DNA from: a virus
DNA length: 64,000 bases
Reading direction: 5' to 3' (one strand)
IMG/VR virus record: IMGVR_UViG_3300037541_000522
Span: 1-64,000 of that record
The position numbers and the translations under genes were made by a program. The notes under the pieces are model-generated. The model ran no database searches and had not been told where the DNA came from. It was given only the letters and a program-made list of their open reading frames with translations. Numbering within the stretch: the stretch's first letter is position 1; the number at the start of each line of letters is the position of its first letter. Positions 2,919-57,464 of the stretch are shown in pieces.

Positions 2919-2928
2919 ATTATTACTA

Positions 2929-2967: not shown

Positions 2968-2969
2968 CA

Positions 2970-2998
2970 TTGACAACTTTATGCTCTTGTGTTACAAT
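2970..2998 (+). promoter_or_regulatory. sigma70-type promoter
   Basis: TTGACA-17nt-TACAAT immediately after the terminator. Confidence 0.75.
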
Positions 2999-3079
2999 AG
3001 TTGAAAATGTCCGTTTCAAAACTAAAATTTTCAAGGAGCCAAACCTTTTAGGCTACTGCACGGAAAGAAAGGGTAAAGA

Positions 3080-4016: not shown

Positions 4017-4279
4017 CAACTACAGTAGTCGTAGATAAAAATACTACAGTAACTATACGGGAACAAACAGTAAATACTGTAGTTGTACGAGACCAAACTC
4101 CCAGAACTGTTATAACCGGTATAATGGGGCCTCCTGGAAAAACTACAGTAAGTGGCCTAGAAGATGTTGATGTAACCTCTTTAAATCCCGGAAGTATACT
4201 AGTATACAATACACAAACTCAAAAATGGATTTCAACTACCTTGCTGAATCAACAAACAGTTGATTCAGGCCAATATTAA
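4013..4279 (+). CDS. Small structural protein
   Basis: GPPG motif and LEDVDV...GSILVYN...KW fibre-like repeat. Confidence 0.55.
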
Positions 4280-4290
4280 AAGGGACAAAA

Positions 4291-5712
4291 ATGGCTTCTA
4301 TTATTAGAATTAAACGTTCAGAGGTAGCTGGAAATCCAAGTGTTCTAGCTGCAGGCGAAATGGCCTACTCTGGATTAGTTAATAACGATTCAAATGGCGG
4401 TGACCGCCTATACATTGGTATGGGTAACGAAAATAATGGTAACGCTGTTAATCACGTAGTAATTGGTGGTAAATACTTTACTGACCTACTAGATCATACA
4501 CGTGGTACACTAACAGCTAGTTCTGCCATTATCGTTGATGCAAATAAAAAGATCAATGAACTACTAGTAGATAATATTACAATAGATGGTAATAGCATCA
4601 CTAGCACTGATAGCAATGGTAATATAAATATTACTCCAGACGGTACCGGTATTACCATAATTAAAAATATTTATACCGATGCCAGCACTAGTCTTGCTGA
4701 GTATATCTACGACACTGTAGGTGGAGCAATTACTGCTGGTACAGGTATTACTGTAACTAATAGTGATCCCGGTAATACTAGTACAATTAGTATCACTGCT
4801 ACTGGCGTAACAGCTGGAAGTTACGGTTCTCAAACTGCAATACCTGTACTTACCGTTAATGCACAAGGTCAAATTACTAGTGTTAATACTGAAAATATTG
4901 CCACTAACCTAAATATTGCTGGCGGTACAGGTACTGATGCGGTTGCACTACTCACTGATACCTTAACATTTACAGGCGGTACTGGCGTTACTACTGCAGT
5001 TACTAATAATACAGTAACTATTAGCATAGGTCAAGCTGTTGGTACTACCAGTGATGTAACGTTTAATAATGTTACAGTAAATGGTCAATTAAGCAGTGAT
5101 GATATTACAGCTGCAAATATTAGTGTAGCAGGTAATGCTACTATTACTGGTAATCTTACTGTTCAAGGTACTACTACCACTGTAAATAGTACGGCCGTTG
5201 CAATTACAGATATTAACATTGAACTAGCCAAAGATGCTACAACTGCTGCTCAAGCTAATGGTGCTGGTTTAACAGTAACAGGAGCTGGTGCAACACTTAC
5301 TTATACCAGTGCAGATGATCGCTGGAATTTAAACAAAAACTTAGTAGTTACAGAAGTTATTGGTAATAGTGCTACAACTACTAAATGGAAAACAGCCCGC
5401 GACTTAAGCCTAACTGGTGATGCTACTGCTACTCTAGTAGGCGTAGATGGTAGTGCTGCAGTAAGCGCTGCAATTACCCTAGCTACTGTTAATGCAAATG
5501 TTGGTAGTTTTGGTGATGGTTATACAGTACCTACAGTAACAGTTAATGCCAAAGGCTTAGTAACTGCAGTAACCACAACAGCAATTCCAACTGCAACTGC
5601 AGCAGCAACTAGCGGTGCAGCTACACTAGGCTTAGCAAAATTTAATAGTGCAAACTTTACAGTTGACAGTGGCTGGGTAACTATAAGTGTAGTTGAAGGC
5701 GGAAGTTATTAA
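4291..5712 (+). CDS. Tail fibre protein
   Basis: N-terminal IRIKRS...LAAGEMAY motif; T/G/A-rich repeats (VTAGSYGS...TVNAQGQIT). Confidence 0.75.
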
Positions 5713-5758
5713 AAGGTAGTTTTTTAACTACTAGTACAAGTCCTTTTTAGGAAACACT

Positions 5759-8275: not shown

Positions 8276-8299
8276 CCTCTGATAAATAGGGACGAGGAT

Positions 8300-11200
8300 A
8301 TGTTTAAAGTAAAAGATGGTATCAGAATAGGTGCCCAAGAATTTGTAGACGGCAGCAGAAATGTAACTGCAGGCACAGTCTCGGCCTCAGACGTTACCAT
8401 TAGTGGCGAGCTTCGTGGCCCAGCTACTATGTATATTGACCCTGCCGGTATCGGTGATAATACAGGTACGCTAGTAATTCGTGGTAATTTACAAGTAGAC
8501 GGTACAACTACTACAATTAACTCTACCACAGTAGCTATTGATGACCTAAACCTACAATTAGCTACGGATGCCCCTAATGCAGCTGCTGCAGATGGTGCAG
8601 GTATTACTATTGGTGGTGCAGGTGCAACCTTTACCTATGTGTCCAGTGGCGACAAGTGGCAGCTAAATAAATCCTTAGAAATTAATGGCAATCAGGTTTG
8701 GCATGCTGGCAACTTAACAAATCTTAACCAACTTACTAATGGTCCAGGCTATATTACCGGTTATACAGAAACAGATACACTCGCAACTGTAACTGCAAGA
8801 GGTGCAAGTACAAGTAATTCAGTTACACTGAGTGGAACGGGGAATCAGTTTGGTGGTCACTTCTATTTTCTTCCTTGGGATTCTGCTGGAAATCACTATC
8901 CTCATTTTAACGACGGAGGTAATGCTTCAGGATCTAAAGTTAATTGGCGTCTATTTACCGGAGGCACCAATAGCATAACACACTATTGGGATACTGGATA
9001 TACGTATTTTGCGAATAGAGTTGAGTCTGCGAGTGACATGCGCGCTACACTATACTATGATGCTACTAATACTTCTTATTATTTAGATCCAGCAGCAGGA
9101 TTTTATCTGTTTGCGAGTTCATCAAGTGCTGTTATAAATGGCACAGAATCTTCTTCTGGGCTTATTATTCAAAACAATTCCACTGGTGGTCCAAAACTTT
9201 CTCTTAAATCTACAGCAGCATCTGGAAAAGATCTATGGTTTATTTCCAATAATACCAGTAACACAGATGGAGCTGGCAGACTCCAGTTATGGAATAATAG
9301 CGACGGCTACACTTTTGCTACTTTTGGCACTACTGCAGGCGCTAATCATTTTATCTATGGTGCATATACACAAATGAGTGGTAGTGCGAGAGCACCAATA
9401 TTCTATGATTCAGATAACACTGGTTATTATGTAGATCCAGCAAGTACGTCAAATCTTTCGGGTTTAACTGTTAGTAATGCTATTTCGGGTAACGTTACAG
9501 GATACTCTAAGTGGATTGACAGAGTCCCTGCATATCAATGGAGCAACTCAACCCTGCCATCTGGGTATAACTCCGGGGTGGAGACATCATTTGTTTCTTC
9601 TGCTGAAGGGTGGCCACAATACGGCGTTGTATTAAGTGTAATGGGACGTGTTCCTGTAGATCCGGGTGGAAATTTTCAATTATTCATGGGACATGGTGCA
9701 AGCTATGGAGGATTAGGGTTAAGAGTTAGATCAATCAATCAAACAAATAATCTTTGGACTTCTTGGAAAATTTTACTTGATGAAACTAACTACACTAATT
9801 ATGCAATGCCTATTGGTTCTTCAGCAACAAACTCTGTTGATATAAGAGCACCGATATTCTATGATTCTGCTGACACTGGTTATTATGTCGATCCGAATAA
9901 CACATCCCGTTTAGCTGAATTGAGAGTTGGCGGTGGACCTGGTGGTAGTACAGCGGGTAACTTATACATACAAGGAAATAATGATTGGAGATGGATTGCC
10001 GGACACGTGCCAAACTATGGTGTAGGAAATGGATTTGGCTTATATAGCGATTCTCTTGGTTACTATTTAATGTCTTTATCGACTTCAGGAAATTGGTATT
10101 TTGGTGAAAACAATCACAATTCATCTCACAGAGTAAGTATCAACGGTACCGGATATGCATCTGGTGATTTTAGATCTCCTATCTTCTATGATTCAAACGA
10201 TACTGCATATTATACAGATCCTGCAAGTACATCTAGGTTAAATAGCATTCTTCCAAATGAAATTCAACTTTATGCAGGTAAAATACAACATGGATCTGGT
10301 TCTGGTGGAACTTCATTTGGTGGGGGCCATTATTCACAGGGTATGGATATAGCTAATGGCTATAGTAGTTGGTCATATCCATATAAAGACTATATCATTG
10401 GACACCATACTGGAATTAGAATAGGTGGTTATTATAATTACGGAGGAACACGATTCTATAATAATTCTCCGACAACTGATGCTGATATGAATGGTCATGG
10501 TGATGGTGGAGAAACACTATTATTCTCGACGGGAATGTGGGATAATAATGTTAGATCACACGTTACGCTGTATGCTCCATTTATATACGACCTTGATGAT
10601 ACTAATTATTATCTAGATCCAAACAGTGGCTCTAGACTACTTCACATTTTTGCTGGAAACGTAAGTTCCAGCAATGATGGTAGTTGGAATGCTAGAATGA
10701 ATCTTGTTGGTTCTGCTCATGCGAGATTAGATGTAGTTAGCAATAGTGATGGCATTATCACTACGATGTATTCACACACTGGTCAAGGCGTGGGCAAAAT
10801 TGGAACGATGTCTAATCATCCGCTAACGTTAATGGCACAAGGCGCTAATGACGGAGGATACGTTTACAACGGATCAATTCGTTCACCAATTTTCTATGAT
10901 GCTAATGATACTAATTATTATTTAGATCCAGCTAGCACATCGAGATTAAACACTTCGCGAATTGGGAACATTAATGTAGGTTCTGGAACTTATTTAAATA
11001 CGATAACACCAATTGGTGATGGTAATATTAATTTAAGTGCACCAAGTGGGGCATTTTATTTTGACACTTGGCCAAGGATGCCAGGATTATATGATATTAA
11101 TGATACTGCATACTATGTAGATCCAAATTCAAATTCTAAACTCGTAAATCTTGGATTAGGTGGTGCCACACCAGACGTAAGATTAAGTATTAGTGGTGAT

Positions 11201-14200
11201 GCACATGTATCAGGCTTCCTTTACATGGCGGGGACTGCAGGATCAGCTGGTAGCTGGGGATCGAGAGATTATACATCAGGAAGCAGTAGATACTTTAACG
11301 CTAACTACTATGAATTTAATAATGTTGGATATGGATCGACTTGGTCATTTACAATTAGCAGTGGAGATACAACATCTTCTTCTTCATCTAGAGCACCTAT
11401 ATTCTATGATTCAAATAATACAGCATACTATACAGATCCAGCAAGCACATCCAGACTAAACTCAATTACTATTGATGACGGCAATGTACAACTGTATAAA
11501 CCACAAACAGTTGACATGTCGAACACTTCGACATATAGCACAAGCAATTACTATCCTGTAACTATACAAGTTCCAACTGGCGGATGCTGGATAGAGATTC
11601 AAAATAATTTAAACTCTAACGTTCCATCTTGGGCTACACACCCAAGCGGATTTACTTTAAATCTAAGATGGTGGACTAACGGTAGTAGCTGGGGAACTAC
11701 TGAAGTTAAGAGAAGGGTAGAACAATACCACGAAAGATTTACTAATTTGACTATTTGTGGTGGTATTACGCAAATGATACATAGTAGTACTGAAGTTGTA
11801 TGGCTACGCGGTGGTGGCACCTACTACTTTTATTTTAGTCGCAATTTAGGTGCTACTGCACAATCAAGTACTTACAGTATTAATAGTCAGAGTGTATCAC
11901 CAACTTCATCAGCTCAAAATAGTGTTTGGGATTCTGCTTCTGGAGCACATACATCTTATAATACACGCGTCGACGCCGATAGTCAGATGCGTTCACCGAT
12001 ATACTATGATTATAATGATACTGGTTATTATGTCGACCCTGGTGCCGATTTATCTTTTCGCACAGCTGGGTACATAAATTTATTTAGAAATGATGTACAA
12101 GCTATTTTACAATCGCAGAATACTTCTGCTGGAAGTCCTGCCCAATTTAATTTGCGCCATAGTTATGGTGATGTAGTTTTAGAAAATTACAGAGGTGGGA
12201 TCCTTGAGTATGCCACTGCGGTTCAAACCAACAATAGTTATCGCGCACCAATATTTTATGATTCAAATGATACTGGTTATTATTTTGATGGTACAGGTGG
12301 AACACGTCAATCTAGATTTTTGACTATAAGTGGTGGAGCTACTGGCATCTACGGGAATGAATTAGTTGTTGGCGCTACTGCTGTACAATACTCTCTTCAA
12401 GATACTAATCAACGAGCAATTATTCAAGCACATGGCGCGTATCCGGTAATATCACTAAATCATACTGTTACGTCTAACACACAGCATGGACCAACTATTC
12501 AGTTTACATCTAATGGCACAGGGCATCAATTTGTTATTGGTACTAATGGTACTGGTACTATGTTGTCAATGGGTTATTCTTCTGCAGGTGACTGGAATCC
12601 TCACAATGGTATTTCTGGATATAATGGTACTTCATTCTTCCATGTTGGAACAAACGGCTACATCGGAATAGGATCTGAAGGCGACTGGACTGTTTCAGGT
12701 GGATCTGGAACACATACTCCTGGATATAATCTACACTTTATTGGAAGCAACAACGCAGTGAATGGACACGCAGCTTTCTTTGATAATCGTGTAAGTGCAA
12801 CAAATAACGGATCCGGATTCTTATTTAGAAATCTTCACGGAAACCATTCATGGGGTGTAGTGGCAGAATATAGAATTGATGGAGCCGGAGATAGACCTTC
12901 TATTTTATTTTCAAGTAATCAGGTAAATACTTCTTGGTCTGTAGGATTTGTAACAGGCAGTGACGACACATTTCGTATAACTAAAAATCATGGTCATAGA
13001 GCATATTATGGTGGATGGACAGATGCTAGTACTGGATGGGGAGCACCATATTTAACCATCAATACTAGCGGTAACGTTACAGCTCCTGTTGACATGCGTT
13101 CACCAATCTTCTATGATTCTAATGATACTAGTTACTATTTAGACCCAAATAGCACTTCGTTTCAACGAAGCCTATTCCTAGGAGCACACGATTCTGGTAC
13201 TTCTGAATTCAGATTTGGTGAAGATAGTAGTGGCTGGTATGGTGACCGATGGTATTGGGATAGCCAATATACTGCATATCGTTATAGCCGATATGCTGGA
13301 ACAGATAGTTTAATTCACTACCACGACACCCGTGATGCCACAAGAATTACTTATGGTCGTAATATTGTATTTGACGACTACGGTAAAGGTATAGTTGGTG
13401 TATATTCTTCTTATAGATACCAAGGCGTGTTTGCAATGGGAGATTCGTATAAACTTCCTGCAGATGGTACTACTACTGGAAGCTTATATGGACTAGCTTG
13501 GTCACACCCAAATGCTGGTGGAACAGCCGGCAATCTAAACACACACGGCCTCCTAGTTTTAGAAAATGGAGGTTTCTTAGCAGCCGTTTCAGGAAGTATT
13601 CGTGCTCGCGATGATATGCGCGCACCAATATTCTATGAGATAAATAACACTGGTTACTATGTCGATCCAGGCAACAATGCAAACATAGCTGGCCAAGTTT
13701 ATATTGGCGGCTGGTTTAGAAACTACGGACAACAAGGTTTGTATAATGAGTCTTATGGAAATCACTGGTATGCAACTGGCAACGACTACTGGAACTTAGC
13801 TGGAAATAATGGCATTAATGTTGGTATTATTTTTAGAACGGGCGGGCATCAAGGCACGTCTCGTGGATATGTGTATGCAGACAGTAGTAATAATATTGGA
13901 TTTTTAAACAGTGGGGCTAGTTGGAGACTGCGTGTTGTTGGAGATGATTATTCTGTAGCAGATGGCTCCTCTATGAGAGCGCAGATTTTCTATGACTCTA
14001 ATGATACCACATACTATCTAGATCCAAATAGTACTACTAGTTCATTAAAAATCGCAGGCGCAATTGAACTAGGCGAAAATCATGCTTTCCCTAACGTAGA
14101 GTGGTCTTCGAGTGGAAGTAGTACTGGTATGATCATATTCAAGTTACCAGGTGGTAGCGGTAACTATGGTATGGTACACATGGTATTTGATTATTACGAG

Positions 14201-15991
14201 TACAATTCTCCTCGCACTGCTACAATCATAGTCGGCGGACATAATTGGAATAGTGCTTGGTATAATAATTCTTGTAATGTAGTTGGGTTCATTGACAAAC
14301 AAGTAAGACTAGGATTTAAAGACGGTCAGTATTGTGTAGTCATTGGAACTTCTGGATCAGAGTGGAACTACGGTACTGTAAGATTAAGAAAAATTCATAA
14401 TGCTTCGTTTTATAACAATGCAATGGATCTTGGTGGATCATACAGCGTAGCTCAAACCACAACAGAGTCATTTACAAATATAACTAGCGACTTAAGAAAC
14501 TTTAGAACACCTACAGCGTTACAGGTTGATGGTATTCTACAAGCATACACAGATGTACGCACGCCTATTGTTTACGATCAAAACGACACCAATTACTACT
14601 GCGATCCTAACGGCAGCAGCAGACTCAATGATGTATTTCCTAATCAGATATACAACTATGGTTGGTTTAGAAATCAAAATTCTGCGACTGGTTTATACAA
14701 TACTGCAACTGATTCGCATTTTTATTCTGCAGGTGCTAATTACTGGCACATTAATCCAGATAATGGTAGTGTTTCAGTTGGCGGATTAATATTTTATGAC
14801 CAGTTTAACAGCACTCAAAATAGCTCAACCGGAAGAAAAGGATCTATTTATTGGGACAGTGCTGGATTTGGTTTATTAGATAGCACGGGTAATTGGACAA
14901 TAAATCTTCATCCAACAAATTATAGACGAGTCACTATAGGCGGTTACAATGGTCTTAACCCTTATAGTAGCGTTGATGGTATTCGCCTTATGTTTGGTGG
15001 CGGCGATGATAACGCGGCTGGCAGTTACTATATTGGTACTAACTTTGAAAACTATGGTGGCACATATACCAAGCTCGATTTACGTTGGCACACCGGTATT
15101 CGCATGGGTGCTCAACCTGGCTATGGTGGTATTAGATTCTACAACAATGAAGGTCTTGAAACAATAAGATTCTCGATTAATAAAGGTGACGAACATACTC
15201 GAGTAGAGAGTGGTAGTTTTTATTCAAACTTAATGTATGATCGTGATAATACTGCTTATTATGTAGATCCAGCAAGCACTTCTAGACTTCTTAAACTACG
15301 AGTTAATACTGCTAATGATCCTAGCGATAATGCATATGGAACGGCAACAGACATACCCATGTATATGTCTGGTAGTACTCGTACTCAATCAACATTTTTA
15401 ATCGAAAATACTAGTAATAGTTTTCTTGAATATCCTGTCATTGTTATTAGAAGAACACAAACTCCAACAGCAGCTAGATTTGGATCATTTATACGTTTTG
15501 CTGATAGGAATTCTGGTGGTAATGATGTATTGACTCAAATTTTTACTTATAATAGACAAACCTCCCAAGATCTAAACATAGAGGCTAGTAGTAGTACAGG
15601 AGATCGTGTAATTATAACAGCAGGTAGTTCTTCTAATATATATGTTGGTGAAAACTATGTTTTTCATTTAAAAGCTGCTAATTATAACGGTATCACTCCT
15701 GGAGCACTAGATATTGATTGTAGGCAAGGCAACTACTTTACAAAAACAATTGCTGGTAATAGTACATTTACATTTAGTAATGTAACTAGTTTAAGTGGAT
15801 ATACTCTTGCATACTCATTTACACTTGAAGTAACACACACTAGTGGTACTATTACTTGGCCTTCAACTGTAAAATGGCCGGGTAACACTGCTCCTTCCTT
15901 AACAACAGGTAAAACTCACTTATTTATGTTTGTTACAGATGATGCTGGAAGTAGATGGCGTGGTTCTTATTTAACTAACTACGATAATTAA
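8300..15991 (+). CDS. Giant modular tail fibre/receptor-binding protein (2563 aa)
   Basis: About 15 copies of an RAPIFYDSNDTxYYxDP linker separating unrelated G/S/N/Y-rich domains. Confidence 0.85.
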   Translation: MFKVKDGIRIGAQEFVDGSRNVTAGTVSASDVTISGELRGPATMYIDPAGIGDNTGTLVIRGNLQVDGTTTTINSTTVAIDDLNLQLATDAPNAAAADGAGITIGGAGATFTYVSSGDKWQLNKSLEINGNQVWHAGNLTNLNQLTNGPGYITGYTETDTLATVTARGASTSNSVTLSGTGNQFGGHFYFLPWDSAGNHYPHFNDGGNASGSKVNWRLFTGGTNSITHYWDTGYTYFANRVESASDMRATLYYDATNTSYYLDPAAGFYLFASSSSAVINGTESSSGLIIQNNSTGGPKLSLKSTAASGKDLWFISNNTSNTDGAGRLQLWNNSDGYTFATFGTTAGANHFIYGAYTQMSGSARAPIFYDSDNTGYYVDPASTSNLSGLTVSNAISGNVTGYSKWIDRVPAYQWSNSTLPSGYNSGVETSFVSSAEGWPQYGVVLSVMGRVPVDPGGNFQLFMGHGASYGGLGLRVRSINQTNNLWTSWKILLDETNYTNYAMPIGSSATNSVDIRAPIFYDSADTGYYVDPNNTSRLAELRVGGGPGGSTAGNLYIQGNNDWRWIAGHVPNYGVGNGFGLYSDSLGYYLMSLSTSGNWYFGENNHNSSHRVSINGTGYASGDFRSPIFYDSNDTAYYTDPASTSRLNSILPNEIQLYAGKIQHGSGSGGTSFGGGHYSQGMDIANGYSSWSYPYKDYIIGHHTGIRIGGYYNYGGTRFYNNSPTTDADMNGHGDGGETLLFSTGMWDNNVRSHVTLYAPFIYDLDDTNYYLDPNSGSRLLHIFAGNVSSSNDGSWNARMNLVGSAHARLDVVSNSDGIITTMYSHTGQGVGKIGTMSNHPLTLMAQGANDGGYVYNGSIRSPIFYDANDTNYYLDPASTSRLNTSRIGNINVGSGTYLNTITPIGDGNINLSAPSGAFYFDTWPRMPGLYDINDTAYYVDPNSNSKLVNLGLGGATPDVRLSISGDAHVSGFLYMAGTAGSAGSWGSRDYTSGSSRYFNANYYEFNNVGYGSTWSFTISSGDTTSSSSSRAPIFYDSNNTAYYTDPASTSRLNSITIDDGNVQLYKPQTVDMSNTSTYSTSNYYPVTIQVPTGGCWIEIQNNLNSNVPSWATHPSGFTLNLRWWTNGSSWGTTEVKRRVEQYHERFTNLTICGGITQMIHSSTEVVWLRGGGTYYFYFSRNLGATAQSSTYSINSQSVSPTSSAQNSVWDSASGAHTSYNTRVDADSQMRSPIYYDYNDTGYYVDPGADLSFRTAGYINLFRNDVQAILQSQNTSAGSPAQFNLRHSYGDVVLENYRGGILEYATAVQTNNSYRAPIFYDSNDTGYYFDGTGGTRQSRFLTISGGATGIYGNELVVGATAVQYSLQDTNQRAIIQAHGAYPVISLNHTVTSNTQHGPTIQFTSNGTGHQFVIGTNGTGTMLSMGYSSAGDWNPHNGISGYNGTSFFHVGTNGYIGIGSEGDWTVSGGSGTHTPGYNLHFIGSNNAVNGHAAFFDNRVSATNNGSGFLFRNLHGNHSWGVVAEYRIDGAGDRPSILFSSNQVNTSWSVGFVTGSDDTFRITKNHGHRAYYGGWTDASTGWGAPYLTINTSGNVTAPVDMRSPIFYDSNDTSYYLDPNSTSFQRSLFLGAHDSGTSEFRFGEDSSGWYGDRWYWDSQYTAYRYSRYAGTDSLIHYHDTRDATRITYGRNIVFDDYGKGIVGVYSSYRYQGVFAMGDSYKLPADGTTTGSLYGLAWSHPNAGGTAGNLNTHGLLVLENGGFLAAVSGSIRARDDMRAPIFYEINNTGYYVDPGNNANIAGQVYIGGWFRNYGQQGLYNESYGNHWYATGNDYWNLAGNNGINVGIIFRTGGHQGTSRGYVYADSSNNIGFLNSGASWRLRVVGDDYSVADGSSMRAQIFYDSNDTTYYLDPNSTTSSLKIAGAIELGENHAFPNVEWSSSGSSTGMIIFKLPGGSGNYGMVHMVFDYYEYNSPRTATIIVGGHNWNSAWYNNSCNVVGFIDKQVRLGFKDGQYCVVIGTSGSEWNYGTVRLRKIHNASFYNNAMDLGGSYSVAQTTTESFTNITSDLRNFRTPTALQVDGILQAYTDVRTPIVYDQNDTNYYCDPNGSSRLNDVFPNQIYNYGWFRNQNSATGLYNTATDSHFYSAGANYWHINPDNGSVSVGGLIFYDQFNSTQNSSTGRKGSIYWDSAGFGLLDSTGNWTINLHPTNYRRVTIGGYNGLNPYSSVDGIRLMFGGGDDNAAGSYYIGTNFENYGGTYTKLDLRWHTGIRMGAQPGYGGIRFYNNEGLETIRFSINKGDEHTRVESGSFYSNLMYDRDNTAYYVDPASTSRLLKLRVNTANDPSDNAYGTATDIPMYMSGSTRTQSTFLIENTSNSFLEYPVIVIRRTQTPTAARFGSFIRFADRNSGGNDVLTQIFTYNRQTSQDLNIEASSSTGDRVIITAGSSSNIYVGENYVFHLKAANYNGITPGALDIDCRQGNYFTKTIAGNSTFTFSNVTSLSGYTLAYSFTLEVTHTSGTITWPSTVKWPGNTAPSLTTGKTHLFMFVTDDAGSRWRGSYLTNYDN

Positions 15992-20243: not shown

Positions 20244-20762
20244 ATGGATCCGCTAACGCTAATGGGTACGGTAACAGCTGCATTTAATGGCCTAAAAGCT
20301 GCTGTAAAAGTAGGTCAAGAAGTCGAGGGAGTATACCGTCAATTAAGTAAGTGGGCGGATGCTGCAGGGCAACTTCAACAACTAATCAATGATAATAAAA
20401 CGGATACGGGTGAGCAAAAACCTGGCTTGTTTGAAAAAATAGGATTTGGTAAAACCGCAACAGCAGAAGCCTTTGATATAATTATAGCACAGCAAAAATT
20501 GCGAGAAATGGAAGCTGAAATATATCATATGTTTTATTATGGTGAACTTCAACACCTAGGAGCAGAGGGCTATAGTCAGTTTAATCAGCTACGTCGTGAA
20601 ATTCGTGAGCGCCGTGAGCGTATGATTCGTGATCAAGCTCGCCGTAGAAAACGGTTTATTGAAAACCTATTCTGGGGAACCTTACTAGTTATAACACTTA
20701 CTATTGCAATTAAATTTTTTGTATGGTTATTTGATATTGGCCGCGAAGCAGGCCGATGGTAG
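20244..20762 (+). CDS. Membrane protein (MDPLT... family), C-terminal TM
   Basis: ORF track; likely start at MDPLT with upstream ggggag RBS. Confidence 0.6.
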   Translation: MDPLTLMGTVTAAFNGLKAAVKVGQEVEGVYRQLSKWADAAGQLQQLINDNKTDTGEQKPGLFEKIGFGKTATAEAFDIIIAQQKLREMEAEIYHMFYYGELQHLGAEGYSQFNQLRREIRERRERMIRDQARRRKRFIENLFWGTLLVITLTIAIKFFVWLFDIGREAGRW

Positions 20763-20770
20763 GAGACGCA

Positions 20771-21205
20771 ATGTGGATTCTTCAATGGCTACCTTGGTGG
20801 CTATTTTATATGGTACTAGCCTTAGGATTATTTGGACTAGTGGTAACTTATTTACTTAAGTTTATTCCACTACCCATAATTCATGTGTACAAAACTCCAC
20901 TACAAATTGGGTCTATTATACTTGTAGTTATCGGAGTTTATATGCTGGGCTCTATAGCTAATGAACGTGCTTGGCAGGCTAGGATAAAAGAACTAGAAGT
21001 TAAACTAGCACAAGCTGAGGCTGAAGGGGCAAAAGAAAATATTAAGATAGTAGAAAAAGTAGTTGTGCAACAGAAAATAGTACGCGAACGCGGTCAAAAT
21101 ATAGTACAGTATGTTGACCGAGAAGTAGTTAAGTATGATACTCGGTGTGAAATTCCACAACCATTTGTAGACGCACATAATCGTGCGGCGGAAAAAATAC
21201 AATGA
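20771..21205 (+). CDS. i-spanin (Rz-like)
   Basis: N-terminal TM segments, periplasmic coiled coil, single Cys near C-terminus; followed by a lipoprotein gene. Confidence 0.7.
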   Translation: MWILQWLPWWLFYMVLALGLFGLVVTYLLKFIPLPIIHVYKTPLQIGSIILVVIGVYMLGSIANERAWQARIKELEVKLAQAEAEGAKENIKIVEKVVVQQKIVRERGQNIVQYVDREVVKYDTRCEIPQPFVDAHNRAAEKIQ

Positions 21206-21465
21206 AATCGATAGTAATAGTATTATCACTAGCGTTAGTAGGCTGTAGCACTCCTGTTCCACTAAAACCCAAATTTCCAGAAGCACCACAGGTATTACTA
21301 GAGCCTTGCAGATCTTTAAAACCACTAGAACAAAATGCTAAACTTAGTGATGTAGCTAAAACGGTTACAGAAAATTATCACCTTTACCATGATTGTAGCT
21401 TAAAATCTAGTATGTGGCAGGAGTGGTACAAAACTCAACGTAAATTATTTGAGGACATAAAATGA
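21202..21465 (+). CDS. o-spanin (Rz1-like lipoprotein)
   Basis: Lipobox LVGC, Pro-rich segment, additional Cys residues. Confidence 0.8.
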   Translation: MKSIVIVLSLALVGCSTPVPLKPKFPEAPQVLLEPCRSLKPLEQNAKLSDVAKTVTENYHLYHDCSLKSSMWQEWYKTQRKLFEDIK

Positions 21466-22085
21466 CCTTAACCTTAGAACAATTACAAAAATTAATACCA
21501 CGAAATAAATATACAAGCTATTGGTTACAAGTTATTAATCAGCTATTTCCAGATTACGAAATTAACACTCCACTACGTCAAGCAGCTTGGATTGCACAGT
21601 GTGCACATGAGTCGGCTGAGTTTACAGTCTTACAAGAAAATCTTAACTATCGTTGGCAAAGCTTACGCAAAGTATTTTCTAAATACTTTCCTACGGATGA
21701 ACTAGCACAACAGTATGCTGGTAAACCCAATAAGCAAGAGGCAATAGCTAACCGTGTATATGCTAATCGTATGGGTAATGGCGATGAGGCTTCAGGTGAT
21801 GGATGGCGATACCGTGGCCGAGGACTTATTCAGCTAACTGGTAAAGATAATTATACTTGGTTTGCTCACAGCATAGAAATCAAACCAGAAGAAGCAGCAG
21901 ATTACCTAGAAACCTTTGAAGGAGCTGCTCAAAGTGCGTGCTGGTTTTGGGAAACTAATAGCTTAAATCGTTGGGCAGACCAAGGGGATATTTTAACCTT
22001 GACAAAACGAATTAATGGTGGTACAATAGGCATAGAAGATCGTAAAAAACACTACGAGCACGCCTTACACATACTAGGAGGCTAA
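21462..22085 (+). CDS. Endolysin, glycoside hydrolase family 19
   Basis: AQCAHES, ENLNY, YRGRGLIQLTGKDNY, TKRINGG motifs. Confidence 0.92.
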   Translation: MTLTLEQLQKLIPRNKYTSYWLQVINQLFPDYEINTPLRQAAWIAQCAHESAEFTVLQENLNYRWQSLRKVFSKYFPTDELAQQYAGKPNKQEAIANRVYANRMGNGDEASGDGWRYRGRGLIQLTGKDNYTWFAHSIEIKPEEAADYLETFEGAAQSACWFWETNSLNRWADQGDILTLTKRINGGTIGIEDRKKHYEHALHILGG

Positions 22086-22087
22086 CG

Positions 22088-22378
22088 GTGATTAGTGATA
22101 AAAAACTATTTCTATTCTTGTTAATTTTACTTGCACTACCTGTTGCACTAGCTGCTTTTGGTAGCGATAGGTTTAGATATCCTTGTCAAGATCCTCAAAA
22201 CTGGGAAACTAAGCAGTGTCAGAAACCACTATGCGATGTTACTCGTACTTGTCCAGAGCATATATTTAAAGGGCAGCGAGATCCTAGACTAGGGCCGCCA
22301 GAGACCCGGCAAGAACCAATGACTCAAACTTGTCAACAGTGTCAACCAGATAAAGGAGGAGCTAAAGGTGCAAAATAA
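22088..22378 (+). CDS. Exported Cys-rich small protein
   Basis: Signal/TM segment then RYPCQDP.NW....C..P.C.....C. Confidence 0.6.
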   Translation: MISDKKLFLFLLILLALPVALAAFGSDRFRYPCQDPQNWETKQCQKPLCDVTRTCPEHIFKGQRDPRLGPPETRQEPMTQTCQQCQPDKGGAKGAK

Positions 22379-22811
22379 GGAGACTTTAATTTATACCGAA
22401 GAACAACTAATGGCTAGACTTAAATTCTTTATAGGAGTTTGTCTAGCACTTACACTAACAGGCATTGTATTTGTAGTTTTATACAGTATAATATTTGTTA
22501 CACAGCCACTTAATGCTATGAGTCCAATTGATCAAAAGTTCTTTGAACTTATTGTACCTATAGCAACATTTTTAACTGGTACACTTAGTGGTATTATGCT
22601 TGCAGGAGCTAAAAAAGAAGATCAAGAAGTAATGCTTCAAGCACAAAAACAACAACAAGATGGATTTAAAGCTACTATTGAGGCTATACGTACACCAGAA
22701 CCTAAACCGCAGCACGTCAGACAAGAGCCAGTACTGTTTGCTAGTGGTCAGCCAGAAGCGGGATACGGCGGAAAACCTAAGCCTCCACAAGCACCACACC
22801 CGGAGATTTAA
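22368..22811 (+). CDS. Two-TM membrane protein (holin candidate)
   Basis: Two hydrophobic helices; lysis-cassette context. Confidence 0.5.
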   Translation: MQNKETLIYTEEQLMARLKFFIGVCLALTLTGIVFVVLYSIIFVTQPLNAMSPIDQKFFELIVPIATFLTGTLSGIMLAGAKKEDQEVMLQAQKQQQDGFKATIEAIRTPEPKPQHVRQEPVLFASGQPEAGYGGKPKPPQAPHPEI

Positions 22812-23270: not shown

Positions 23271-23960
23271 ATGGCAACTAGATCAGGTAAAAAAGCTCGT
23301 AAACAACAAACCAATACTCAATCAAACCCAATTGAGTATGGATTTAGAGATGTAAAACCTCTTAATTTTATACAAGAACAATACTTAAATGCTATAAAAC
23401 AAAATGAGGTAGTTTTTGGAGTAGGCAGTGCAGGTACAGGTAAAACATTTGTAGCTGCTAGCTATGCTGCAGGAGAGCTTTTTCATAGACGCATAAATAA
23501 AATTATACTAACCCGTCCAAATGTAGAAACTGGCCGCGGCTTAGGATTTTTACCAGGTGAATTAGAGGAAAAGTATGCCCCATACTTAGAACCATTTGAC
23601 AACGTGTTTCAACGATCTTTAGGTAAAGGATTCTATGAATATGCACTTAAAAATAAAGATATAGAACCCCGGCCTATAGGATTTATGCGTGGAGCAACAT
23701 TTGATAATGCAATAGTTTTAGTCGATGAAGCGCAAAACTTAACTAAAACTGAACTAAAAATGCTCTTATCACGCATAGGTAAAAATTGTAAAGTAATTTT
23801 AAGCGGTGACCCAGATCAGCGAGACTTAAATAATTCAGGACTAGAGGACGCTATAAAACGGCTAGAAGGTATTGAAGGTATTGAAGTAATTAGATTTTTA
23901 GATCAAGATATAGTTCGTAGCAAAATGTGTAAACAAATAATTTTAGCATATAAGGATTAA
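23271..23960 (+). CDS. phoH: PhoH-family ATPase
   Basis: GSAGTGKT, RP.VE, GFLPG, FMRGATF, DEAQN, GDPDQ.D motifs. Confidence 0.95.
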   Translation: MATRSGKKARKQQTNTQSNPIEYGFRDVKPLNFIQEQYLNAIKQNEVVFGVGSAGTGKTFVAASYAAGELFHRRINKIILTRPNVETGRGLGFLPGELEEKYAPYLEPFDNVFQRSLGKGFYEYALKNKDIEPRPIGFMRGATFDNAIVLVDEAQNLTKTELKMLLSRIGKNCKVILSGDPDQRDLNNSGLEDAIKRLEGIEGIEVIRFLDQDIVRSKMCKQIILAYKD

Positions 23961-49254: not shown

Positions 49255-49310
49255 CTCATTCTCCTCGGTTGAGCAAGAATTGTTAATAAAAATGCCAAAT
49301 GGCCATTTAA

Positions 49311-49616
49311 GTCCAGGTTTTCTGTTACGAGGATAACCTGGAACCCTAAGCCGAGTTTAGGCGGCTAATGCGAACGTTTCATCGTTTGCGTTTAGTTTGT
49401 TTGCTTCTCTAGCCGGGTAGTCCCAGCCCTACGGCTTCTGCATTGCCGAGTTGTCCATCTTCCTACTCTGCACCCTGTCGAAACCATGACTAGCCCATCA
49501 GAAACATTCTCACGGTTTATCTTTCCGTTCCCAAATACATGGACAAAAATGTTTCTGGTGGACCAGGCGGGAGTCGAACCCGCGTCCAAAGCACCTTTGG
49601 GTTAACTTCATACAAC
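49311..49616 (-). ncRNA. ssrA: Circularly permuted two-piece tmRNA; tag ANDETFALAA
   Basis: Acceptor piece ...GACGCGGGTTCGACTCCCGCCTGGTCCACCA (ends 49556) precedes coding piece GGGCTAGTCATGGTTTCGAC (starts 49496). G3:U70 pair present; tag ORF at 49389-49357. Confidence 0.92.
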
Positions 49617-49800
49617 TATATCTTCTTTTGCGTAACACTACAACTACCAACTAGGGTTTTACCTTTAGTTTCGTAGTCTAGTTTAAGTTTGGCTAGTGCT
49701 TGTTCGCACTCAGCTCTGCTAGAGTATGCACCTCTAGTTCCGTGCTCGCCGCCAGTGCCTAACACAGAAAATAGTATAATCCATACCCAAGCCATAGTAT

Positions 49801-53492: not shown

Positions 53493-53521
53493 ATTATAGC
53501 AAACTAGATTGCATAGTTCAA
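53493..53521 (-). promoter_or_regulatory. sigma70-type promoter
   Basis: TTGAAC-17-TATAAT. Confidence 0.75.
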
Positions 53522-53531: not shown

Positions 53532-53747
53532 TTAACTGTCTTGTTCTACATAACGATAGTGTTTAGTTATCTCTGTAAAACATTCTTGAAATTGATCGCG
53601 GGCTTGTAGGAACTGTGTATAGGCTTGAGCACCGTTAGTTGCTAGAGCAAGACTAGCTGCACCCAAGTCATCTACAGCTTGCATTATGGTTTTGTAATCT
53701 TGTTCTTGTTTTGGGCACCAGTATTTATGAATTTTTAAAGCTGACAT
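53532..53747 (-). CDS. Small helical hypothetical protein
   Basis: ORF track; last gene of the fibre-like operon. Confidence 0.6.
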   Translation of the reverse strand: MSALKIHKYWCPKQEQDYKTIMQAVDDLGAASLALATNGAQAYTQFLQARDQFQECFTEITKHYRYVEQDS

Positions 53748-53853
53748 TTTTACTACTTTTTATTTAACTGTAATTTGAGAGCAGTCACACCCGCATGTAA
53801 TCTACTATAGTGCAGCCGCCTCATCTATAGTAGTGTTATCGATACCGTCCTCC

Positions 53854-54258
53854 TTATATTACGTTCCAATTTGTTCCGCGGAACACTAGTGTAATTGCTC
53901 CATCTGTGGCGGCTAATATTGTGTAGCTTGCTGCATTTTCAATGGTTTCTGCACCATTGGGCGTAACGGTAATATCGCTGGTTTGTCCAGCTTCGCTTTT
54001 GATAACTACTGTTCTACCGTCTACACCGGCAGTTAGGTTAATAGCAATCGCAGCTCCAGTGCCTACTACGCCTAAGTAGTAATTTGGAGTAGTACCTGCA
54101 CTGTCTAGGGTATAGGGACTTGCTGCGTTGTTGACTAGCTGTGTATTAACAGTTTCATTTCCTACAACAGAAATAACGCCGTTAGTAACTGTAATATTTG
54201 ATCCAACCTTTACTACACCGTAGTTGGTGGTTGAGGTTAATGGTGAATTATATGCCAT
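53854..54258 (-). CDS. Fibre-like protein: shared N-terminal motif plus beta-sandwich domain X
   Basis: MAYN..L.STT.YGV.KVGS N-terminus; IKSE.G....ITVT...ETIE...ITLVF.GTNW C-terminus. Confidence 0.7.
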   Translation of the reverse strand: MAYNSPLTSTTNYGVVKVGSNITVTNGVISVVGNETVNTQLVNNAASPYTLDSAGTTPNYYLGVVGTGAAIAINLTAGVDGRTVVIKSEAGQTSDITVTPNGAETIENAASYTILAATDGAITLVFRGTNWNVI

Positions 54259-54296
54259 GGATTTTCTCCTGTTATTGTTATTGTTGGCACTGAAAA

Positions 54297-54602
54297 TTAC
54301 CCTGCTATACTCTTCCAGTTAGTGCCGTCGTAAGTAAGTAGTACGCGGCTATATGGAGTATTTAATATTGCAAAACTTGCACCATCAATGGTTTTTCCAC
54401 TGGGTGCAGTAATAGTTATAGGATTTATTTTTGAATTACCTGAAAAATCTTTGATATAATAAGTTTTACCAGTATTACTTCCAGATAGGTTTGGTAGTAC
54501 CAGTGATGACGCAGTTGTTACATTACTAAATATAACCTCATCGTCTTTATCAATTGTGGCGGGTGTTGTTGTAATAGTTCTAGTATCATAAGTTATACTC
54601 AT
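54297..54602 (-). CDS. Stand-alone domain X protein
   Basis: LP...GKTYYIKDFSG....NPITIT....TIDG...L.YDGTNW. Confidence 0.7.
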   Translation of the reverse strand: MSITYDTRTITTTPATIDKDDEVIFSNVTTASSLVLPNLSGSNTGKTYYIKDFSGNSKINPITITAPSGKTIDGASFAILNTPYSRVLLTYDGTNWKSIAG

Positions 54603-54603
54603 A

Positions 54604-55164
54604 TTATCCTATCCTTGTTAGTGTAACCTTGACTGCATAACCTGTTGGTCTAACAGGATTTACTTGAGCAGCTAGTGGGCTAAAACCAGTAGTTATATCT
54701 GGACTACTCCAACAGGTTTGTATGTTATCTCCTGCTGCTAAACTCAGTGTATAATTACCGCTTAAGAATACTATAGATAATACGTTTGTTAGTTGTAACT
54801 CTTGTGCTGAGCCTGTTATATCTACACCGTTTTTTCGTAACCATATACTTAGTGTGGCTGTGCCACCGCTGGTTTTTGTGGTTATAAGTGTAAATATTTG
54901 AGTATATATACCTGCATTTGCAACAGTGATATTGTTACCGCCGCCGCCTATGCTTACTCCATTAGCTGGGCCTAATGTATCAAATGTAATAACATTAACC
55001 TGATTAGCAACTGGATTAGTTTGTGGGGTACTACTATTAACAAATCCATATTCGCCAAAACTGCTGCTAGTTGCAGTAACAATACCATTTGTTACACTTA
55101 ATCCACTTCCTACTTTGATTACGCCATAGTCTGTGGTACTTGCTAGTGCTTGATTATAGCTCAT
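54604..55164 (-). CDS. C1q/BclA-C-terminal-like protein with shared N-terminal motif
   Basis: MSYN..L.STT.YGV.KVGS; ITVANAGIY, WLRKNGVDI, LSLAAGDNI; ATGA overlap with the upstream gene. Confidence 0.65.
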   Translation of the reverse strand: MSYNQALASTTDYGVIKVGSGLSVTNGIVTATSSSFGEYGFVNSSTPQTNPVANQVNVITFDTLGPANGVSIGGGGNNITVANAGIYTQIFTLITTKTSGGTATLSIWLRKNGVDITGSAQELQLTNVLSIVFLSGNYTLSLAAGDNIQTCWSSPDITTGFSPLAAQVNPVRPTGYAVKVTLTRIG

Positions 55165-55652
55165 ACTACATTCCATTCTATGCCATTATAGACCAAACCA
55201 ATACTGCCCCAGTCTGTGTCTAAAACATAAGTTAATTCGCCATCAATACTACTGCCTGTAGTAGTCACAGTAATTGGATTTGTATTAGCATCCCCCGCAC
55301 TATCTTTGATAATAAACACTTTGCCAAGGGTTCCACTAGGAAGTGTAACCGTTACTGCACCATTATAAATTACGCCTAAAAAGTACTCATCTGTGGTAGC
55401 ACTATAGGTTGGCGTATCTATGAGTTGCACAGGCACATCTGCTAGTGAGCCTGGTGGTCCTTGTGGTCCTTCCGGACCCTGAGGACCAGGTGGTCCTGGT
55501 GGACCGGGTGGTCCGGGCGTGCCTATGCCATAGTTGATAAATAAGTCATTATCTTCCATGATTGGAGGCGGCAGGGGCGGAGCAGGAACAAGAGCAAACC
55601 CTTGCTTTTGCCACATAAATGGTGGCAATAAGTGTTGTTTTTGTCTTTGCAC
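55161..55652 (-). CDS. Collagen-like protein with domain X
   Basis: About 8 G-X-Y triplets (GTPGPPGPPGPPGPQGPEGPQGPPG); TVTLP...GKVFIIKDSAG C-terminal domain. Confidence 0.8.
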   Translation of the reverse strand: MQRQKQHLLPPFMWQKQGFALVPAPPLPPPIMEDNDLFINYGIGTPGPPGPPGPPGPQGPEGPQGPPGSLADVPVQLIDTPTYSATTDEYFLGVIYNGAVTVTLPSGTLGKVFIIKDSAGDANTNPITVTTTGSSIDGELTYVLDTDWGSIGLVYNGIEWNVV

Positions 55653-55666
55653 AATAATCTCCTATA

Positions 55667-55701
55667 AAAAGCGCCCCCAGGTCTTTTGAACGTGGGGGGC
55701 C
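55667..55701 (-). terminator. Terminator/attenuator after the coiled-coil gene
   Basis: GCCCCCCA...UGGGGGC-GCUUUU. Confidence 0.65.
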
Positions 55702-55717
55702 AACCGTTAATTAGAGA

Positions 55718-56479
55718 TTATCTAATATTTGTATTTGTGTTTGCTGGATTAGCGGTTTGTGTTCCACTACCAACATTGATTGCTGAGTTAGTATTCTGAA
55801 TGTTTTGAGCAAGGGCCCAGAGAGCATTGTAAAGCTGACCGTATTGTTGTTGCTGTTGAGCTTGCTGTTGCATCTGGTTAACAGTGGTTGTTGTATTGAC
55901 CTCTACACCACGTGTACGCTCTGCGGTATCAAAACGAGATTGCAGTGCAATAATGTTTGCATTAGCATCGCTGAGTTGACGGTTTAGAGTGGCTTCGTAT
56001 TGACTAGTGATTAAGGCACGAGTCTTGTCACCATCATTGTTAATGTCTTGTGCCAACTGGTAACGGTTTTCCATTACTTGTTGTTGTACGCCATTAAGTT
56101 GCTGTGAAAGCAGCATAGCGGTCGCATTAACTGCTTCTTTGGTACCGTCAACACGAGTTGCCAATGAGCCTGTTTGTGCATTGAGCTGGTTTGTAAAAGC
56201 AATGGTTTGATTGGCTTGTGACGCTTCCATGGCTGCTGTACTAACAGCTACTGCCTTGTCTACTTGACCAATGCTCTGCATTAGGCTCATGTTGGCTTGA
56301 ACTTGCTCAGGCGGACTACGTAGAGTTGCTCCAGCAGCTGCGCCATCTCCTCCAAAGAGATTACCATTGTTGCGTAGGAGCGAGCCTAGGATAAGACCGC
56401 CAATAAGACCGCCGCCTCCGAAAAGACCGTCGCCGCCGCCACTCATCATCATGCCTGCAGGTGTGATTGATTCTGCCAT
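55718..56479 (-). CDS. Gly-zipper N-terminus plus long Q/N/A-rich coiled-coil protein
   Basis: GGGDGLFGGGGLIGGLILGSLL then ~190 aa with heptad character; strong GGAG RBS. Confidence 0.8.
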   Translation of the reverse strand: MAESITPAGMMMSGGGDGLFGGGGLIGGLILGSLLRNNGNLFGGDGAAAGATLRSPPEQVQANMSLMQSIGQVDKAVAVSTAAMEASQANQTIAFTNQLNAQTGSLATRVDGTKEAVNATAMLLSQQLNGVQQQVMENRYQLAQDINNDGDKTRALITSQYEATLNRQLSDANANIIALQSRFDTAERTRGVEVNTTTTVNQMQQQAQQQQQYGQLYNALWALAQNIQNTNSAINVGSGTQTANPANTNTNIR

Positions 56480-56554
56480 TTTGTTCTCCGTTTTTTATTA
56501 TTGTTTGTGGAGTTAAACGGCTACTAGGCCGGCAAGCCTAGCTGCCGACCATAA

Positions 56555-56758
56555 TTAACTAACTATGGGTTTCTCTGTGATTACTTCGTACTCATCTAGG
56601 GTAAGGCACTCGTCGTGTTTACTTAACCACATCAAGTTTTCCATCATATAGTTTATATGATCTTGCGTTACCTTAGGGTCTTTGATATGTTCTAAGAGCT
56701 TTTTCATGAGTTTAGGGCTAACCTCAATCTCTACGAACTTGTAATATTTATCGCCCAT
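56555..56758 (-). CDS. Small hypothetical protein (probable paralog of next gene)
   Basis: I.V...LM.KLLE....LTLDEYEVI. Confidence 0.6.
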   Translation of the reverse strand: MGDKYYKFVEIEVSPKLMKKLLEHIKDPKVTQDHINYMMENLMWLSKHDECLTLDEYEVITEKPIVS

Positions 56759-56961
56759 TAAAAACCCCCTCTATCAACTATTGTGTCATAGTGTTTCATA
56801 GTGAGGAGAGTATTTGTTTGCATTAGCCTGATTAGGTGTTCTGCTACAAAGTGCAAATCTTTATCGTGTTTAGCATCTTCGCGCGCAAATTCCATCAATC
56901 TAAGCATTAGCGGAACATCGACTGAAATAATGTCTAATCCGTTATATGCCATCATACACAT
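56758..56961 (-). CDS. Small conserved phage protein (VDVPLMLRLMEFAREDAK)
   Basis: ORF track. Confidence 0.65.
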   Translation of the reverse strand: MCMMAYNGLDIISVDVPLMLRLMEFAREDAKHDKDLHFVAEHLIRLMQTNTLLTMKHYDTIVDRGGF

Positions 56962-57019: not shown

Positions 57020-57094
57020 TGGTGGACCGCCGGAGGATCGAACTCCGACCTATGCCGTGCAAAGGCACCGTGCTCCCATTATCACTAGCAGCCC
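57020..57094 (-). tRNA. tRNA-Ala (TGC)
   Basis: G3:U70, TTTGCAC loop, ACCA. Confidence 0.92.
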
Positions 57095-57412
57095 TTAATA
57101 ATAATATACGTGTGGTTTACGTCCTACTGCGGGCGGATCTACTAGCTCTAGGTCTGTGGTCTTGAGCACTGCGTGCTCCCATACACGGCCACGACGACGC
57201 TGTGGACGATTCATAGTAATACGAGTCCACCAGCTAGGTGTTGTGCTATACCAGCGAAAATGACAGTAGTTTCTACGCTTTTTAGTTTTCTTGCCCGCAA
57301 CTTGTATGTAACGAAAACCAAAGCTACTAGTATCTACACGAATAGCATCGTATAAGTAGTGATCTTCTGGATACGCTACAGTGTGCGGTTTATCTTTTAG
57401 AGTACGACTCAT
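57095..57412 (-). CDS. Basic hypothetical protein (MSRTLKDKP...TPSWWTR)
   Basis: GGAG RBS; start at MSRT. Confidence 0.65.
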   Translation of the reverse strand: MSRTLKDKPHTVAYPEDHYLYDAIRVDTSSFGFRYIQVAGKKTKKRRNYCHFRWYSTTPSWWTRITMNRPQRRRGRVWEHAVLKTTDLELVDPPAVGRKPHVYYY

Positions 57413-57422
57413 TATTATCTCC

Positions 57423-57464
57423 AAAAAACCATAGTTCAAATCACGAGTATGAGTTGAACTATGG
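57423..57464 (-). terminator. Intrinsic terminator ending the ncRNA operon
   Basis: CCAUAGUUCAA...UUGAACUAUGG-UUUUUU. Confidence 0.85.

Follow-up and report, generated by a model that had tools for sequence, protein, structure and literature searches.

What is the task of eight small genes that lie among the tRNA genes of an uncultured freshwater phage, about 37 kb from its tail-fibre genes, and that are in part assembled from the building blocks of fibre proteins? The question is raised by a 64,000-nucleotide stretch of DNA (hereafter the window), which corresponds to bases 31586-95585 of a 97.5-kb IMG/VR virus record (IMGVR_UViG_3300037541_000522). The DNA polymerase of this phage is 49% identical to that of T5-like Vibrio phages and its genome layout is likewise T5-like, with a plus-strand late block in the order terminase, portal, capsid, tail tube, tape measure, large fibres and then lysis genes, and a minus-strand block holding the replication genes, 18 tRNA genes and a transfer-messenger RNA (tmRNA). 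The eight genes (g1 to g8) are co-oriented minus-strand open reading frames (ORFs) extending from tRNA-Ala to the next promoter-like site, as an earlier note made from the sequence alone had described; its remark that they lie on the opposite strand and more than 35 kb from the tail genes agrees with the position of the tail-fibre genes (3-15991, plus strand). The ORF coordinates given there also stand, whereas two gene starts were revised: g4 begins at GTG 55652, which lies behind AGGAGA and gives an N-terminus kept in relatives, and g5 most likely begins at ATG 55164. Together the genes form a cassette that is a conserved, mobile and hypervariable unit, far beyond chance, and that most likely deals with the host surface. 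Its features, in reading direction, are:

57020-57094, minus strand: tRNA-Ala, the upstream boundary of the cassette.
56758..56961, minus strand: g1, a 67-residue helical protein (ORF), paralog of g2; its start may be ATG 56955 behind GGAG.
56555..56758, minus strand: g2, a 67-residue helical protein (ORF), paralog of g1.
55718..56479, minus strand: g3, a 253-residue rod protein (ORF and AlphaFold 2 model).
55666..55700, minus strand: intrinsic terminator-like hairpin GCCCCCC...GGGGGC followed by TTTTT (-15 kcal/mol), directly after g3 and before the ribosome-binding site of g4.
55161..55652, minus strand: g4, a 163-residue anchor fibre.
54604..55164, minus strand: g5, a 186-residue mini-fibre, beginning MSYN... 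and overlapping the g4 stop.
54297..54602, minus strand: g6, a 101-residue stand-alone domain X (PF07880 and PHROG matches).
53854..54258, minus strand: g7, 134 residues, motif A and a C-terminal domain X (alignments with g4-g6).
53532..53747, minus strand: g8, a 71-residue helical protein (ORF), the last gene of the tRNA-region versions of the cassette.
53493-53521, minus strand: sigma-70-like promoter TTGAAC-17-TATAAT with TG, called from its match to the consensus, which starts the next unit.

The fibre ancestry of the middle genes is well supported by the identities of three of their parts, namely a knob, domain X and a collagen run. The earlier note had proposed that the four small proteins encoded by g4 to g7 are built from shared parts, and this was borne out: domain X occurs three times and motif A twice, alongside a (GXY)8 collagen run and a modelled TNF/C1q/BclA knob. 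The copies of domain X in g4, g6 and g7 share about 31% pairwise identity with 14 invariant columns, and g6, searched against the complete genome of the phage, returned only these three (E 2e-10 and 2e-6). Against the Pfam family PF07880 (T4_gp9_10_N), g6 reaches 23.6 bits (E 6.2e-5; cut-off 25) and g4 14 bits; the PHROG matches of g6 are 20556 (baseplate), 972 (gp34-like) and 15797, and tblastn leads from it to gp10-like baseplate proteins. A profile built from 39 such domains matches, over the whole domain, the proximal fibre protein gp34 (9f4a, E 7.3e-7; 9x3r, E 5e-6), the N-terminal part of TSP4 of phage CBA120 (TSP4-N; 7REJ, E 0.0095), gp9 (E 0.013) and gp10 (E 0.19). Taken together with the published domain map (PMC8825819), the profile result shows that the earlier comparison of domain X with the N-terminal repeats of T4 gp34 was right. 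Judged by its sequence, domain X is an XD1-type domain and a relative of those in T4 gp9, gp10 and the N-terminus of gp34 and in TSP4-N (9f4a, 9x3r, 7REJ, 5IV5).

The knob of g5 (residues ~38-186) follows a single beta-hairpin repeat, motif A (residues 1-30), and was recognised by its predicted structure. The AlphaFold 2 (AF2) model, made with 47 relatives, has a mean predicted local distance difference test (pLDDT) score of 88.4, exceeding 90 over residues 40-186. Foldseek against the PDB returned 9h38 (F-BclA), 1wck and 3tyj (BclA), 4qpy and 6mgp with probability 1.0 and E 4e-8 to 2e-6, and the solved-structure matches also include ExsFA/BxpB, C1QL2/3 and the TNF ligand 4-1BBL, which is in keeping with the earlier description of these parts as being of the trimeric-fibre kind. 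The score against Pfam BclA_C (PF18573), 23.0 bits, does not pass the cut-off of 38, and a profile of the 47 relatives found no significant PDB sequence match; the relation of the modelled knob to TNF/C1q/BclA-C is one of fold only. Among the predicted structures in BFVD, knobs of this type are parts of long phage fibre proteins with collagen, Stf repeats or S74 chaperone domains, and in viral contigs they are embedded in fibre-type proteins of 400-1600 residues. The proteins of the exosporium (BclA, F-BclA) and the endospore-appendage collagen proteins (1wck, 3tyj, 9h38) have the same jelly-roll as g5 (template modelling score 0.65-0.76 on the target). Unlike in BclA, however, the g5 knob follows a beta-hairpin repeat rather than collagen, identity is 10-20%, and the host is probably Gram-negative with no spore context. 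A spore-coat or exosporium reading was rejected, as the likeness to BclA does not go beyond fold and architecture.

Motif A is identical between g5 and g7 at 18 of 30 residues (60%; E 2e-10) and occurs nowhere else in the 97.5-kb genome. It aligns with A(S/T)TTxLGVxxVGxGLx(V/I)TxxG(V/I) repeats in many relatives and is a beta-hairpin of low confidence in the g5 model; it may be a repeat of the triple-beta-spiral type. Motif A was rejected as a significant relative of any solved fibre, its best PDB match being the ...YSLPAATTTTLGGVKKG... stretch of phi29 gp8.5 (E 0.88, not significant) and another the adenovirus fibre (E 6.4), so that these matches serve as a lead only.

The protein encoded by g4 consists of a Gln/Pro-rich N-terminus (residues 1-40) with the motif DNDLFIN, a (GXY)8 collagen run (55446-55523) and a C-terminal domain X (~55164-55409). 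The N-terminus is kept in relatives as a Gln-rich stretch, a Pro-rich and hydrophobic stretch and the acidic motif D-N-D-(L/V)-(F/I)-I-N, after which the collagen begins. The collagen run, GTPGPPGPPGPPGPQGPEGPQGPPG, comprises eight to nine uninterrupted Pro-rich Gly-X-Y triplets (5 to 27 in relatives), and it is because of this shortness that g4 stays below the cut-off of Pfam Collagen (PF01391; E 8.7e-4, 19.5 bits, cut-off 27.2). PHROG tail-fibre families are also matched by g4. Related layouts exist within single chains. A protein designated P0277 has a full-length match to the tail-protein family phrog_6013 (E 3e-39), followed by collagen and a C-terminal domain X, and two metagenome proteins, P0274 (313 residues) and P0275 (331 residues), join a Pro-rich anchor, DxDLFIN, long collagen, a BclA-like domain and a C-terminal domain X, with anchor, collagen and knob in the order of BclA. 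Domain X can thus follow a knob within one polypeptide, and the three proteins identify a collagen stalk ending in domain X as an established tail-fibre layout with domain X at the far end. In g4, the tail-protein anchor is swapped for the Pro-rich N-terminus that goes with g3 throughout. This anchor is found only in the first protein after g3, while the later ones begin M(S/A)Y... and continue with motif A. P0222, used as a scan query, gave no match.

Upstream of the fibre genes, g3 encodes a Gly-rich hydrophobic segment (residues ~18-35), a helix (58-229), a poly-Q stretch and a disordered but conserved tail ending ...ANPANTNTNIR. In the AF2 model, which is based on an alignment of 89 sequences, residues 58-229 form a single uninterrupted helix of ~170 residues, or ~25 nm, with pLDDT above 90 for residues 70-190, and a short helix lies within the Gly-rich hydrophobic segment. 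Since a helix of this length would need partners, we infer that g3 forms an oligomeric coiled coil. The family alignment has conserved motifs at both the N- and the C-terminus and the family is large (2285 matches; 270 representatives at 50% identity), all of its members being unannotated. Searches of Pfam, PHROG, PDB sequences and PADLOC with g3 gave no match, and the ESM Atlas leads to unnamed viral clusters only. The terminator that the earlier note had pointed out behind g3 is a recurrent feature: a comparable hairpin and T-run stands 3' of g3 in 34 of 60 distinct loci, and several more have a hairpin with TTT only. A conserved terminator at this place would fit the production of more rod protein than fibre protein. 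In some loci (L145:5656-5890, L149, L153, L039, L147 and L151) a conserved in-frame N-terminal extension (...YYxKLAxxI...) precedes the MAE(V/S) start of the window. The extension occurs where the cassette follows a ribonucleotide reductase gene, a place where no clear intergenic promoter was seen, and long and short forms of g3 from two starts are possible.

The earlier note had made its idea of a cassette depend on co-occurrence of the genes in other genomes, and they do co-occur widely. More than 50 related viral contigs carry the cassette; for g3, a first scan yielded 43 viral contigs and a second one added more. Among 55 loci of the T5-like clade, which include two pairs that are overlapping cuts of one contig, 53 have a Pro-rich anchor-X protein of the g4 type directly after g3. 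The exceptions, L039 and L046, do not differ in their g3 statistics and probably represent a single type of phage; the gene after g3 in L039 is a non-fibre gene of 153 codons. Three architectures recur: a single protein with long collagen (12-27 triplets) and domain X; the type seen in the window, with short collagen-X, motif A-knob, X and motif A-X proteins; and a collagen-free type with a Pro-rich-X protein, a 132-residue X protein, a ~155-residue motif A-X protein and sometimes more. Such a conserved unit of varying composition justifies the term combinatorial used in the earlier note. The cassette occupies one of two positions, either the tRNA region (the window, L017, L014, L010, L142) or a site bordered on one side by the ribonucleotide reductase gene and on the other by the convergent end of the late block (L145, L149, L153), and in syntenic genomes a g1/g2-type gene moves with g3 and the fibre genes between them. 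Exchange within the cassette is sharply bounded. The flanks are ~90% identical at the nucleotide level, and DNA homology is lost exactly over g5-g6 (L017, L022, L023) or g4-g8 (L030, L018). In L017, g1 and g2 are 100% identical to those of the window, g5 is 36% identical and g6 is absent.

The most economical reading of these data, which we tentatively favour, is that of an accessory, exchangeable host-binding fibre set mounted through the g3 rod and the collagen protein. The g3 protein would oligomerise into a ~25 nm rod, made in excess, it is proposed, because the terminator follows its gene. Through its conserved Gln/Pro-rich N-terminus, g4 would bind to the rod or to the particle and would carry a short collagen stalk ending in the XD1-type beta-sandwich, onto which the motif A proteins g5 and g7 and the free domain X of g6 could be added as alternative or serial tips. 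The whole would be an accessory fibre on the virus particle, a whisker or a capsid or tail hair, that binds the host surface and the tip genes of which would be swapped between close phage relatives. Trimer formation, the binding partners and, above all, the location on the virion are proposed rather than observed. In favour of this reading, every recognisable domain is a fibre domain, and the linkage of g3 to the fibre genes holds both in 53 of the 55 clade loci and in the shared move between the two genomic positions.

Parallels to such a set exist in several known systems. T4 gp9, gp10 and gp34 and TSP4 are modular trimeric proteins which build branched host-recognition complexes from small adaptor domains. 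Short capsid fibres made of collagen or coiled coil are known from SPP1 (gp12) and phi29 (gp8.5) (PMC7602432), and these short trimeric accessory fibres are dispensable and aid adhesion. Unlike them, the cassette proteins have no recognised capsid-binding base and no significant sequence relation to either, and their genes lie outside the head module. The (GXY)8 collagen of g4 is similar in length to that of SPP1 gp12. A match to an already characterised head-fibre module, which the earlier note had named as speaking against its idea, was not seen: the cassette proteins match no head family in Pfam or PHROG and no characterised head-fibre, spanin, holin or defence family. The variability of the tips also has a counterpart in the C1q-type putative receptor-binding genes of uncultured phages, which vary sharply between near-identical genomes (Mizuno et al. 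2014, PMC3909814; Bellas et al. 2020, PMC7468147). The knob genes of the cassette, like the C1q genes of these 'metaviromic islands', differ sharply between otherwise near-identical genomes. The island genes adjoin tail fibre genes, however, while those of the window stand in a separate, rod-headed cassette on the other strand.

Several observations weigh against a place on the virus particle. The proven docking domains of the T4 and CBA120 complexes are XD2 and XD3, while XD1, the sandwich common to gp9, gp10 and TSP4, has been described as a spacer (PMC8825819). No match to an XD2- or XD3-type docking domain was seen, the matches falling on gp9, on gp34 and, in TSP4-N, on the XD1 part (residues 99-174), and unlike T4 gp10-gp11-gp12 and CBA120 TSP1-4 the cassette stands outside the tail and baseplate module. 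Domain X is C-terminal in g4, g7 and all 74 distinct relatives listed, and not N-terminal and particle-proximal as in baseplate-attached fibres; unlike in T4 and TSP4, it always ends proteins of 100-230 residues and once stands alone. Docking partners in the phage's own tail genes were sought with motif A, the DNDxxIN anchor and domain X and rejected, none of the three being found outside the cassette. In the window, inspection for the consensus revealed no promoter-like site between tRNA-Ala and g1. Near and distant DNA searches of a phage collection gave tRNA matches only, with no cultured member. In either position, the cassette shares its direction with the replication and tRNA genes and not with the genes of the late block. 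Lastly, g3 itself may carry a membrane segment and has a wide distribution of its own, in unrelated phages without fibre genes (At2, L128-L140), which marks it as horizontally mobile.

This last group of findings favours an assembly that belongs to the infected cell, which is a serious alternative, if a somewhat less likely one. In that case, g3 would be an abundant rod made early, membrane-anchored or cytoplasmic, and fibre-type binders would have replaced its usual small partner to act in the cell, at the membrane or free after lysis; the binders might exclude other phages, mask receptors on debris or serve as decoys for host defences that sense fibre proteins. A membrane anchor could be provided by residues ~18-35 of g3, which have a mean hydropathy of 1.8 (1.57 over 89 relatives), K and R being slightly commoner after the segment than before it. 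The prediction is borderline, however, and in about half of the relatives at least 60 residues precede the segment. Outside the clade, the positions of g3, as read from viral contigs, one scan of genome contigs and one annotated phage record, are diverse. It lies between tail genes and endolysin/Rz genes in Acinetobacter phage At2 and in the order g3-HNH-endolysin-terminase-portal in L130, and the copies in L137 (55% G+C) and L140 (48% G+C) are 55-58% identical to that of the window in genomes with no other gene in common, which indicates that g3 spreads horizontally by itself. A lambdoid prophage of Entomohabitans teleogrylli (L154:6584-8107, NZ_LLXO01000014.1; also L129) has g3 and a partner in the gap between Q and the holin/endolysin/Rz genes, both running antisense to NinG, Q, endolysin, Rz and terminase. 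An antisense location in the Q-to-lysis gap is the textbook place and orientation of an independently expressed moron, and this site therefore argues that g3 acts in the cell. Like phage morons, g3 also has its own terminator and spreads among unrelated phages; unlike them, it matches no known moron protein family, and in the window neither g3 nor g1 is directly preceded by a consensus promoter.

The nature of the partner also bears on this question. In the Entomohabitans prophage it is a Gln/Pro-rich protein of 159 residues (WP_058912851.1), for which a cluster look-up and a homolog search returned 'hypothetical protein' only. At the distant g3 loci, a small unannotated non-fibre protein of one family (A7) always stands directly downstream, with a conserved C-terminal helical domain (motif ...FLxTxEGKxxIxL...FKK) and an N-terminus that is often Gln/Pro-rich, like that of g4. 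Members of the family are:

L131:6666-6989: A7 family member.
L132:6687-6923: A7 family member.
L134:6368-6703: A7 family member.
L139:6622-7092: A7 family member.
L042:5298-5552: A7 family member.
L127:7375-7662: A7 family member.

An 84-residue member is retained after the fibre genes in the T5-like contig L042/L043. From these sequences, g3 and its A7 partner look like an old two-gene unit, and the similar composition of the Gln/Pro-rich N-termini of the partner and of g4 suggests that this region may meet g3. Against an assembly in the cell stand the lack of signal peptides in g4-g7 (by inspection), hence of a usual route to the cell surface, the occurrence of collagen, XD1 and C1q-like knobs otherwise in extracellular or virion structures, and the absence of a PADLOC match. 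Moreover, g3 elsewhere lies in line within structural modules, between portal and scaffold (L132) or after a tail fibre gene (L139). A combined form, in which the g3 family would be a widespread rod that has its anchor in the membrane of infected or lysogenic cells and works with the product of the next gene, and in which the T5-like clade would have replaced this partner by receptor-binding-type mini-fibres used as intracellular or lysis-released binders, appears still somewhat less probable.

It is unlikely that the rod and fibre genes are no more than neighbours, with g3 (and g1 and g2) an independent moron with a cellular role and g4-g7 free-standing mini receptor-binding tips that sit on the phage's own large tail fibres or baseplate without g3. 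Such a separation would agree with the functioning of g3 without fibre genes elsewhere, including L039/L046 in the same clade, with the terminator that separates g3 from g4, and with the fact that small knob proteins behind fibre genes are common in uncultured phages (PMC3909814). It is contradicted by the near-constant succession of g3 and an anchor-X gene and by their joint move between positions, and 37 kb lie between the cassette and the genes of the fibres that its tips would have to join. Nor do the tail genes offer domain X or motif A for docking, and the motifs of g4, including its anchor N-terminus, are unique within the genome.

Finally, it is highly improbable that g3 is a lysis-related membrane protein (holin- or spanin-like) with the fibre genes as unrelated passengers: its homologs do adjoin lysis genes in At2 (just upstream of endolysin/Rz), in L130 (an endolysin) and in the prophage, and a single hydrophobic segment with a helix whose length is close to the width of the periplasm would suit the role. 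Nevertheless, g3 was rejected as a spanin or holin: the late genes of the window phage end in a lysis block of its own (20756-22811, plus strand; endolysin 21462-22085, phrog_181, E 7e-76), At2 and the Entomohabitans prophage carry their own Rz-like spanins, g3 is antisense to the lysis genes in the prophage, neither g3 nor 24 relatives match a PHROG or Pfam lysis family, hydropathy is borderline and the charge bias misfits the N-in topology of i-spanins.

Were the fibres part of the particle, the cassette would represent a compact plug-in kit for host recognition, consisting of a rod, a collagen adaptor and swappable knobs of 100-190 residues each, which sits apart from the structural genes, travels as one block and diversifies fast. 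This would bear on the prediction of host range for uncultured freshwater phages and on the engineering of small exchangeable binders. If they are off the particle, tail-fibre domains would have been re-used for a cellular or post-lysis task, and a membrane rod in particular would imply that fibre modules have a novel use and that a novel two-component accessory system exists across many phage lineages. Either way, an unannotated rod family of 2285 homologs with a conserved downstream partner constitutes a sizeable amount of unexplained phage gene content.

The remaining genes of the cassette encode small helical proteins. The earlier suggestion that g1 and g2 are probable paralogs is upheld, the two being weakly related (BLASTP E 1e-5, 25% identity); g1 has no match in Pfam, PHROG or PADLOC. 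Most cassette loci contain a member of their family, also where the cassette follows the ribonucleotide reductase gene; there, it lies downstream of the fibre genes. Between g2 and g3 a further element was read from the sequence:

56527..56550, minus strand: stem-loop GGTCGGCAGC-TAGG-CTTGCCGGCC without a T-run, possibly a candidate processing or stability element.

The g8 family was found after the fibre genes in 29 loci; a relation of g8 to the A7 partner family behind the distant g3 genes was rejected (hhalign probability 0.4). The 106-nucleotide gap between g7 and g8 contains an inverted repeat, CTACTATAG...CTATAGTAG (53762-53850, minus strand). Directly upstream of tRNA-Ala lies an ORF for a basic protein of 114 residues (57095-57439, minus strand) with no PHROG match, and a weak promoter-like site at 57439-57411 may start a transcript running into the cassette. 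In the late block, the endolysin gene (21462-22085) is flanked by genes for small membrane proteins, one with a weak Rz-like match, and a PhoH-like gene comes next (23271-23960). Within the tRNA cluster, ARAGORN calls a permuted (two-piece) tmRNA with the tag ANDETFALAA (49266-49648, minus strand), which may hint at the host group.

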